From: Escherichia coli
GTDB taxonomy: Bacteria; Pseudomonadota; Gammaproteobacteria; Enterobacterales; Enterobacteriaceae
Direction: 5' to 3' (one strand)
Assembly (NCBI RefSeq): GCF_003334405.1
Contig: NZ_QOWM01000002.1
Length of the DNA stretch: 64,000 bases
How positions within the stretch are numbered: position 1 is the first letter of the stretch; every line of letters starts with the position of its first letter. Of this stretch, positions 54,914 through 56,041 are shown piece by piece. The notes under the pieces were generated by a model. That model had not been told where the DNA came from, ran no database searches, and was given only the letters and a program-made list of their open reading frames with translations. Both the position numbers and the translations under genes were made by a program.

Positions 54914-56041
54914 TTAACGGCGTCTATAGCCTTCCTCTAGCACCGCCTGTGTTCGAACGAGTTCATCTGCGAGTCGTTTCTCATCAGGTAGTTGCATCTT
55001 ATATTCGCTTGCCAGAACGGTGTTAGGCAAACCTGCCAGAGCATAATGCGCTTCTCCGGCTCCTTTCTCTGCACAGAGAACCAGACCGATGGGCGGATTT
55101 TCATCCGGTAGCGTCCAGTGCTCTTTGGCGTAGTTGAGATACATATTCATCTGTCCGGCATCGCTATAGCTGAATTTGCCCACTTTTAGATCGACGATTA
55201 GCAGGCAGCGTAAATGGCGGTGGAAAAACAGCAGATCGACACGAAACCAGTTGTCATCAATGCGTAACCTTCGCTGCCGACCAACAAAGGCAAAATCATC
55301 CCCAAGTTCCAGCATGAAATCCATCAGGTGGTTGATCAGCGCCTCCTCAAAATCGGATTCTGAATATTCATCTTTCAATTCCAGAAATTCGAGCACAAAG
55401 GGATCGCGTATCGCCTGTTGCGGAAGAATATGCGTCTCGGCAGGAGCGTGTTGTTGCAGCATGGCTGATTTGTCATGTGACAGTAGTGTCCGCTCATAAA
55501 ACTGGGTCGCAATTTGCCGCTCTAGCTGGCGAACAGACCAGCCACAGCGGAGCGTCTCTTTTTCATAAAAGCTGCGGGCGTCAGCGTTTTTAACGGAAAG
55601 TAAACGGACGTAGGTGGACCTGGGCAAGGGGAAAGATTTGGCAGACAGCGTCTGCCAAATCTTTGCCGATGGGAATTCTGCAGACGGTGTCTGCGGAATT
55701 CCCAATGGTGTTAATTCGCCAGACATTGTCTGGCGAATTTCAACATGTTGAAAAAAGAGGTAAAAAAGCCTCATTTGGCGTAAGTTTTTTGCAGAGAACC
55801 CACGCTTATACCTTAGACATAAATCCTTTGATAGTCGCTTGATTAGCTGCGCACCATACGCAGCCCTGGCCTCGCCACCTTGTTCAAATTCGACAATTCG
55901 TCGGCCAATTTCCTGGTACGTCGCGGTCATTAACGCGTTAACGCTACGTACCGTTTCCGTCCGGGCGCTATCGACCAGATGAATAATACCGTCGTGGATT
56001 TGCTGGTAGCCTGCTGTGGTTCCTTCTGAGAGCGATTCCAT
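54914..56041 (-). CDS. yhcG: DUF1016 / PD-(D/E)XK nuclease-superfamily protein
   Basis: 375-aa ORF; C-terminal half contains D...(D/E)XK-like residues (RVDLLFFHR ... LIVDLKVGKF); residues ~101-137 are encoded by three tandem palindromes. Confidence 0.85.
   Translation of the reverse strand: MESLSEGTTAGYQQIHDGIIHLVDSARTETVRSVNALMTATYQEIGRRIVEFEQGGEARAAYGAQLIKRLSKDLCLRYKRGFSAKNLRQMRLFYLFFQHVEIRQTMSGELTPLGIPQTPSAEFPSAKIWQTLSAKSFPLPRSTYVRLLSVKNADARSFYEKETLRCGWSVRQLERQIATQFYERTLLSHDKSAMLQQHAPAETHILPQQAIRDPFVLEFLELKDEYSESDFEEALINHLMDFMLELGDDFAFVGRQRRLRIDDNWFRVDLLFFHRHLRCLLIVDLKVGKFSYSDAGQMNMYLNYAKEHWTLPDENPPIGLVLCAEKGAGEAHYALAGLPNTVLASEYKMQLPDEKRLADELVRTQAVLEEGYRRR
55632..55739. repeat. Three tandem palindromes (CAGAC-N3-GTCTG cores) lying in-frame inside yhcG
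   Basis: AAAGATTTGGCAGACAGCGTCTGCCAAATCTTT (55632-55664), GGGAATTCTGCAGACGGTGTCTGCGGAATTCCC (55671-55703), AATTCGCCAGACATTGTCTGGCGAATT (55713-55739). Confidence 0.8.

Follow-up and report, generated by a model that had tools for sequence, protein, structure and literature searches.

A conserved palindrome carried in frame by DUF1016/YhcG genes and tandemly expanded in Escherichia coli yhcG

We analyzed a stretch of 64,000 nucleotides of the Escherichia coli contig NZ_QOWM01000002.1 (hereafter the window), in which yhcG, a putative nuclease gene of the DUF1016/YhcG family, carries palindromes that are translated in frame. The region corresponds to nanE-nanK-nanQ(yhcH)/yhcG/yhcF-E-D-A/gltF/gltD of K-12-like E. 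coli and lies in the orientation opposite to that of MG1655. The motif CAGAC-N3-GTCTG was found at five sites in the window against 0.05 expected, and none of 100 shuffles reached five. The sites share a 25-bp core form, ATT-N3-CAGAC-N3-GTCTG-N'3-AAT; three of them are in frame in yhcG and two are intergenic. An earlier note on this DNA had described an intact yhcG open reading frame (ORF) of 375 amino acids (aa) with such palindromes in frame, which our analysis confirmed. The features are as follows, with scores in bits from a covariance model built from the 122 units of homologues in other organisms that are described below.

54914..56041, minus strand: yhcG coding sequence (CDS), intact ORF of 375 aa, RefSeq name yhcG.
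55714..55738, minus strand: unit 1, nearest the N-terminus, ATTCGCCAGAC-ATT-GTCTGGCGAAT; peptide I-R-Q-T-M-S-G-E-L; 38.9 bits.
55675..55699, minus strand: unit 2, ATTCTGCAGAC-GGT-GTCTGCGGAAT, with one mismatch; peptide I-P-Q-T-P-S-A-E-F; 28.9 bits.
55636..55660, minus strand: unit 3, ATTTGGCAGAC-AGC-GTCTGCCAAAT; peptide I-W-Q-T-L-S-A-K-S; 43.6 bits.
54874..54898, no strand assigned: solo intergenic copy, ATTCTGCAGAC-ACT-GTCTGCAGAAT; 40.2 bits.
62012..62036, no strand assigned: solo intergenic copy, ATTCGCCAGAC-ACA-GTCTGGCGAAT, 17 nt past the gltD stop codon; 30.3 bits.

The array in yhcG consists of three periods of 39 bp (13 codons per period), spans about 55629–55746 and encodes the peptide EIRQTMSGELTPLGIPQTPSAEFPSAKIWQTLSAKSF, in which each unit reads I-x-Q-T-x-S-[AG]-x-x. 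The earlier note gave the same peptide and the same three in-frame units, but its block of exactly 108 bp was too short. Longer stems span 55671–55703 in unit 2 and 55629–55667 in unit 3, so that stems reach 15–18 bp in the units at 55636 and 55675. The two intergenic copies of the same type also stood, although their cores start at 54874 and 62012 rather than at 54873 and 62011. The first lies between the convergent nanQ and yhcG stop codons, 20 nt past the former and 15 nt past the latter, and the second is almost identical to unit 1. Only these five sites in the window were scored by the covariance model (29–44 bits, with the next site at 15 bits), and both intergenic copies were outside the training set of the model. 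Folding as a single strand gave −20 to −26 kcal/mol per unit as RNA and −11 to −16 kcal/mol as DNA (z-scores −3 to −8), and −68 kcal/mol for the whole array as RNA (z = −10). Tandem Repeats Finder did not call the yhcG array because the units are only 70–89% alike outside the conserved blocks, and the MG1655 record has no repeat annotation at the yhcG palindromes.

The earlier note had assigned a PD-(D/E)XK fold to the protein, and this is borne out by the Pfam matches. Residues 19–184 match DUF1016_N (PF17761, E = 1.3e-36) and residues 208–360 match the YhcG_C PD-(D/E)XK nuclease domain (PF06250, E = 1.8e-56). The DUF1016_N match covers 166 YhcG residues against a model of 137 positions, which leaves about 29 extra residues, equal to two units. 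Residues 9–370 match the profile hidden Markov models of PDC-S02 in PADLOC (E = 3.4e-131), a candidate single-gene phage-defence family; in the searchable literature, papers mentioning this family name it only as a candidate. No match was found in NCBIfam, and sequence and profile searches of the PDB gave no relative. Kosinski et al. (2005, PMC1189080) compared the YhcG nuclease domain to archaeal Holliday-junction resolvases and YraN.

To place the palindromes in the family, the DNA of 80 homologues was taken from contigs representing one genome per species, in which they were located with an alignment of 10 sequences. The homologues belong to the Beta-, Gamma- and Deltaproteobacteria, Acidobacteria, Cyanobacteria, Planctomycetes, Verrucomicrobia, Nitrospirae, Ignavibacteria and Elusimicrobia, and to the archaeon Methanoperedens. 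At least one palindrome (at least 9 of 11 pairs) was present in 84 of 85 homologue CDS, always in codon frame 0 and at nt 90–480 of the match; the only CDS without one is a match that lacks the N-terminus. The 85 CDS contain 122 units in total, compared with a chance level of about 0.02 units per gene, which is our own binomial estimate and not the result of a tool. It should be kept in mind that the 122 units were chosen by their count of Watson–Crick pairs, that the genes are related and that the covariance-model E-values are rough.

Homologues that share 32–65% identity, whether from phages, from an archaeon or from many bacterial phyla, have the equivalent segment at the same protein position. 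Enterobacterial YhcG orthologues are 349–391 aa long, and every one has at least one unit at the same place. In Salmonella and Citrobacter koseri a single unit lies at the same codon, where IEIQQTLSGES is encoded by ATTCAGCAGACACTGTCTGGTGAAT (11/12 palindromic); these single units, and likewise that of the O157 allele, are orthologous to unit 1 of the window, at 55714. Representatives at 38–58% identity have from one to more than six tandem copies of I-x-Q-T-x-S-x-x-[FLS] between the FY..YP and (L/P)SW(S/T)HY motifs, and in other taxa the distance between units is invariably divisible by 3 (mode 39). Very distant members use other stems, such as CAACC/GGTTG (peptide IQQPVVAES) and TACAC/GTGTA (peptide ISYTVCKEF). 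In an independent set of phage contigs, the covariance model matched 27 of 37 homologue loci at the same position. Most of the 10 remaining loci carry another palindrome there, including 14-bp arms in L106 and L119 and ACGCA-C-TGCGT encoding ‘HALR’, and two look decayed. The family consensus is ATT-N4-AGAC-RSY-GTCT-N'4-AAT, with a stem of about 12 bp and a loop of 3 nt.

This comparison of homologous sequences shows that the element is family-wide and ancestral, and that it lies in frame in a putative linker of the N-terminal domain, just upstream of (L/P)SW(S/T)HY. The earlier note had proposed that an equivalent segment in distant homologues free of palindromic DNA would mark an ancestral part of the protein. 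Such a segment is found at the same position and is ancestral; the distant homologues, though, carry palindromic DNA as well. The neighbourhoods of DUF1016 genes vary, from a core-genome site to a mod-DUF1016-res restriction–modification operon, a mobilisable element and prophages. Because the neighbouring genes vary, the gene product is the only constant partner of the hairpin.

Two further palindromes were seen in the course of this comparison. The metagenomic homologue P0209 (L088:2297-2600) contains at least six repeats of 60 nt, each with the family hairpin and a palindrome with 8-bp arms, TCTAAAGACA-GTA-TGTCTTTAAG. A weaker second palindrome (9/11 pairs; TCCTGGAGTTCCTTGACCTCAAGGA) lies over the conserved DPYVLEFLxLKDEY motif in L039, L056, L066 and L086 (CDS motif VLEFLDLKDE) and at about 55330–55370 of the window; it may follow simply from the conserved peptide.

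We examined the alignment of the 122 units for covariation. Paired cells amounted to 91.9% compared with 72.7% in shuffles, and the covariation score was 0.49 compared with 0.14 (0 of 500 shuffles reached either value), figures that have to be read with the caution that shuffle controls overstate independence, since the units stem from related genes. Double changes occurred in 11 of 12 pairs. Pair 15–27 is CG in 78 units, GC in 35 and UA in 9, and is unpaired in none, and pairing falls to 20–44% when the partner columns are shifted. The mid-stem 4-mers take 33 different forms, with perfect complementarity there in 91 of the 122 units.

The encoded peptide is highly variable: the 122 units give 107 distinct 9-mers, which track the stem. 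CAGAC/GTCTG yields Q..S-A/G, GAGAC/GTCTC yields E..S-R, GCGAC/GTCGC yields A..S-R and GAATC/GATTC yields E-S..I-R. Even between E. coli alleles (about 90% identity), CGC..GCG (R..E) in unit 1 is exchanged for GTG..CAC (V..Q) with the pairs retained. Synonymous resampling with the codon usage of each gene gave 5.4 pairs on average, whereas the real sequences have 10.5 (P averaging about 7e-4 per gene). Codon choice in the units departs from the background set by the rest of each gene. All 74 Ile codons are ATT (background 30%), 61 of the 72 Ser codons are TCT (background 13%), and Thr is written only as ACA or ACG, whereas ACC and ACT together account for 49% in the background. These patterns of substitution and codon use show that the constraint is on the nucleic acid, where selection preserves base pairing instead of the peptide.

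Whether the paired form is DNA or RNA was considered next. Among 1342 cells of the alignment, the non-Watson–Crick ones comprise 15 sense-strand G·T, 27 A·C and 48 other mismatches, so that G·U is not enriched, in a test that is weakened by coding constraints and by the Watson–Crick-based choice of units. The loop is R-S-Y in 118 of 122 units. This class is its own reverse complement, and ACT/AGT, ACC/GGT and AGC/GCT are all common; the purine at the first loop position is not a peptide constraint because it falls on the synonymous site of Thr. None of the five window sites was called an intrinsic terminator in a terminator/promoter scan, and a U-tract was absent; the palindromes are preceded by T-rich DNA at the 5′ end and followed by A-rich DNA at the 3′ end, which is the reverse of a terminator. 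Scanning against Rfam 15 returned only chance-level matches of microRNA type (at most 24 bits, with gathering scores of 34–130). Because there is no G·U excess and the R-S-Y loop is two-fold symmetric, we infer, on this indirect evidence, that the element acts as two-fold-symmetric DNA, in the form of a hairpin or a cruciform, and not through a structure of the mRNA.

The alternative is that hairpins in the yhcG transcript control ribosome transit, decay or processing, and that the intergenic copies are 3′ stabilisers like repetitive extragenic palindromes (REPs). The RNA folding energies of the units and of the array are in line with it, the element always lies inside a translated and transcribed region, and both solo copies of E. 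coli are 15–20 nt past stop codons. Yet G·U pairs are rarer than A·C, the loop is symmetric under reverse complement, neither a U-tract nor an Rfam match accompanies the element, and it persists in non-coding gene remnants. We therefore consider mRNA hairpins improbable, and the regulatory RNA structure suggested in the earlier note is not favoured, given the missing G·U excess, the symmetric loop and the missing terminator tail.

The alleles of yhcG were surveyed in 60 evenly spaced rows from 3973 matching complete E. coli genomes. About two thirds of the sampled genomes have the three-unit allele, about 8% miss 78 bp (O157 type) and about 18% align only from 55636 onward, among them a B-lineage laboratory strain. 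Alleles of 349, 370, 375 and 382 aa were found, and with the 39-bp period they make the array an in-frame minisatellite, that is, a coding variable number tandem repeat. The O157 allele differs by a 78-bp deletion between the direct repeats CCATTG and CCCTTG, by which units 2 and 3 are lost; judged from these endpoints, it is a slippage deletion. The 370-aa class has two units with different stems. By the same sequence comparison, two of the three yhcG units are a lineage-specific tandem in-frame expansion in K-12-type E. coli. Thus the inserted element of the earlier note survives for two units as such an expansion, whereas unit 1 is ancestral, as Salmonella, C. koseri and 84 of 85 homologues indicate. 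Taken together, the descriptive core appears to us very probably correct: the element is ancestral and occurs throughout the family, selection acts on it as DNA, and K-12 carries a tandem expansion of it.

In the truncated allele, about 470 bp of unrelated DNA stand in place of the intergenic palindrome and of the two thirds of yhcG that encode the nuclease, and the junction falls exactly at the outer edge of unit 3 (55636). In E. coli GZ2408C, this foreign DNA (L003:2530-3001, the counterpart of window 54855–55635) contains an ORF of 101 aa annotated ‘transposase’, which had no match in Pfam, NCBIfam, PHROG or PADLOC. Strain L73 has an IS1 inside unit 3. E. coli genomes have at most six palindrome places each (median 3), all chromosomal except one plasmid match. 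The copy at 62012 belongs to DNA specific to strains with the gltF-yhcADEF island and marks the gltD-proximal edge of that island. The gltF-yhcA-yhcD-yhcE-yhcF block (window 56042–62036) is missing in O157:H7 and other strains, in which yhcG is 183 bp from gltD. These junctions show at the sequence level that the element marks rearrangement breakpoints.

In 465 kb of loci, covariance-model matches were nearly confined to DUF1016 genes, to remnants of them and to their immediate flanks. Flanking copies precede the start codon by about 50 nt in L080 and follow the stop codon by about 200 nt in L057; other copies are in paralogues or pseudogene fragments (L048, L074), and L062 has arrays without a gene. 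A pattern scan of viral contigs, which did not demand pairing of the middle triplets, gave 41 sites, of which 39 have at least two of three middle pairs complementary and 24 are in DUF1016 genes. Some solo viral-contig copies are DUF1016 remnants. Solo palindromes amid stop codons were seen in L130, L134, L145, L146, L151–L153, L155, L156, L162 and L164, and two adjacent solo units in both L146 and L151.

In two prophage contigs, hairpin-bearing DUF1016 remnants of 75–180 bp form direct repeats around a two-gene module beside a tyrosine integrase. The remnants (L163:4690-4870 and 6010-6190; L097:480-590) have internal deletions but keep the hairpin and the 3′ end of the gene. The repeats are 94% identical and the proteins of the flanked module have 176 and 126 aa; in L097 a full-length DUF1016 gene serves as the second repeat. 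Because remnants keep the hairpin, the hairpin outlives the gene and marks rearrangement junctions.

The breakpoints could also be explained if the element were a recombination site for a trans-acting factor other than YhcG, encoded by the host or by an element, with exchange, duplication or deletion of DNA segments and thus cassette-like shuffling around DUF1016 genes. This would suit the truncated allele of about 18% of matching E. coli genomes, which starts at the unit 3 edge with foreign DNA beyond, as well as the IS1 within unit 3, the prophage remnants repeated around a module by an integrase and the 62012 copy at an island edge. However, recombinases are not consistently found next to the element, in most genes the unit is single and lacks a partner site, and replication slippage alone also predicts breakpoints at palindromes. 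The 3-nt central region is moreover unlike the core sites of tyrosine recombinases. A separate recombination factor thus has, in our opinion, a small chance of being the right explanation.

It may also be that the palindrome has no function and is a quasi-palindrome in a tolerant protein linker, whose arms are equalised by intrastrand template switching in replication, so that the compensatory changes are mutational. Strict Watson–Crick pairing without wobble is what templated correction would produce, the peptide is highly variable in both sequence and length, the element survives in decayed remnants and the number of units shifts by slippage. On the other hand, the element holds one position in almost every one of about 120 genes, which reach down to 32% identity and span two domains and phages, and only 2 are clearly decayed. 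This explanation also leaves the conserved unpaired loop (Thr always ACR; R-S-Y in 118/122) and the conserved ATT and AGAC blocks unaccounted for, and we find it hardly probable. That a miniature palindromic mobile element, like a REP, a Rickettsia palindromic element (RPE) or a miniature inverted-repeat transposable element, was recently inserted in frame in E. coli yhcG is very improbable: some alleles lack units 2 and 3, solo copies lie nearby and one unrelated phage ORF has a family-type palindrome in frame, but unit 1 is ancestral to the whole family, which refutes the idea for that founding unit, the additional units represent tandem 39-bp duplications or deletions with short direct repeats at their ends, and there are at most six places per E. 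coli genome and no further copy in the 64-kb window.

Several known sequence types were compared with the element and rejected. Rudd's TRIP1 repeat is G+C-rich, 146–273 bp long and found at other loci. GAC-N3-GTC is a site of Tth111I type, but a type II restriction site does not fit, as the core differs between family members and between units of one gene and GACNNNGTC is not avoided in the window. The core sites of tyrosine recombinases (dif/pdif, attC) have two binding arms and a central region of 6–8 bp, and attC also has extrahelical bases and R/L boxes, whereas the element has a 3-nt centre and fully paired arms. REPs and bacterial interspersed mosaic elements were rejected because three of the five window copies are in a CDS and the copy number per E. 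coli genome is low.

A cis-element that is conserved across domains and in unrelated neighbourhoods should have as its partner either universal machinery or the product of the gene itself. We propose that each palindrome may be a copy of an ancient cis-acting DNA element belonging to the DUF1016/YhcG gene family, and that the partner of the hairpin could be YhcG itself, a putative resolvase-like PD-(D/E)XK nuclease, as the base of an extruded cruciform is a four-way junction of the kind such enzymes recognise. YhcG would then bind, and perhaps nick, its own gene. Such self-binding might throttle the expression of a potentially toxic candidate defence nuclease, which is often inserted without a promoter in foreign operons, and raised local recombination would be a side effect. 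Self-recognition by YhcG, as autoregulation or as self-directed nicking or recombination, is favoured here because a resolvase-like nuclease is combined with a structure whose extruded form is a four-way junction; we hold it tentatively, as an explanation with somewhat less than an even chance. The wider idea that DUF1016/YhcG genes are self-contained nuclease-plus-hairpin modules, in which the cognate site inside the ORF serves autoregulation, self/non-self sensing in phage defence or self-promoted recombination, is possible but more doubtful.

Several observations weigh against self-recognition of a DNA hairpin or against the pairing on which it depends. The tip sequences differ among units of one gene (L041, L083, P0155), so that recognition would have to be largely structural. 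The GACNNNGTC core occurs 12 times in the window compared with 11.4 expected, and this lack of depletion argues against restriction-like cutting of duplex DNA. About 15 of the 41 viral-contig sites are solo, with no DUF1016 gene in the fetched locus, and an unrelated ORF of 95 aa on a 327-kb viral contig contains, at L138:7563-7587, a perfect palindrome of the family type, ATTGGCCAGACGGTGTCTGGCCAAT, read in frame as IGQTVSGQS. For a cruciform to be extruded in vivo, arms of 11–12 bp around a 3-nt loop are short. The limits given above for the shuffle controls and for the G·U test count on the same side.

The proposed pairing of YhcG with its hairpin resembles REP/RAYT (TnpA-REP) and IS200/IS605 TnpA, in which a nuclease or transposase family is likewise tied to a cognate short DNA hairpin; stems covary while a few positions are fixed, solo copies lie near the gene and the sites are hotspots of recombination. 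However, REPs are extragenic, reach hundreds of copies, flank the RAYT gene and have an HUH Y1 transposase as partner, whereas the yhcG hairpin is inside the ORF in frame, has very few copies per genome and goes with a PD-(D/E)XK nuclease. In I-TevI autorepression and at the operators of restriction–modification C proteins, a symmetric DNA site is bound without destructive cleavage, which limits a dangerous enzyme. Those sites are in promoters, are read as duplex DNA and show no stem covariation; the yhcG element, in contrast, is within the CDS and behaves as a base-paired structure. Quasi-palindrome correction together with slippage accounts for complementary arms, gain and loss of units and deletion endpoints, but the correction is a mutational process and leaves positional conservation and loop constraints unexplained. 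RPEs are likewise palindromic DNA translated in frame with the host protein intact (Ogata 2000, 2002, as cited in PMC4316617); they are mobile elements of 100–150 bp in many unrelated genes of one genus, whereas the yhcG-family element has 25–35 bp, one fixed position and one gene family, and is conserved across phyla. Among these close analogues (REP-RAYT, IS200/IS605, RPE and nuclease autorepression), none has a hairpin fixed in frame at a single position of the enzyme's own ORF. Rfam and the searchable literature on DUF1016/yhcG hold no description of the element; absence there is no proof of novelty, and the hairpin in DUF1016/YhcG genes is apparently undescribed so far.

Some other features of the locus were recorded. 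A plus-strand ORF of 59 aa at 55663–55842, MPMGILQTVSAEFPMVLIRQTLSGEF, resembles the yhcG repeat peptide only through the palindromy of the DNA and is most likely not a gene. A stationary-phase non-coding RNA, G0-10703, is divergent from the yhcG upstream region and overlaps the yhcG 5′ untranslated region by 128 bp (PMC7967276); it belongs to 56042–56225 of the window and is unrelated to the palindromes. The yhcE gene (56939–57490) is whole in the window, whereas in MG1655 it is interrupted by IS5, so that the window, although K-12-like, does not come from MG1655.

The YhcG/DUF1016 family has more than 21,000 cluster representatives (E ≤ 0.001), is uncharacterised and occurs in defence islands, restriction–modification operons, prophages and conjugative elements. 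A hairpin at one codon position across bacteria, archaea and phages is the first concrete handle on what YhcG nucleases recognise. It dictates codon choice and amino acids, so that inside an ORF a nucleic-acid structure overrides constraint at the protein level, which is relevant to gene annotation, to codon-based selection tests and to the recoding or synthesis of DUF1016 genes. If the self-contained module is real, the site could never be separated from its gene during horizontal transfer, and a cis-acting DNA signal would be encoded in a way not recognised before, with base pairing imposing itself on the protein sequence. For E. coli, the element accounts for the length polymorphism of yhcG and for its common truncation allele, which is shared by B-lineage laboratory strains.

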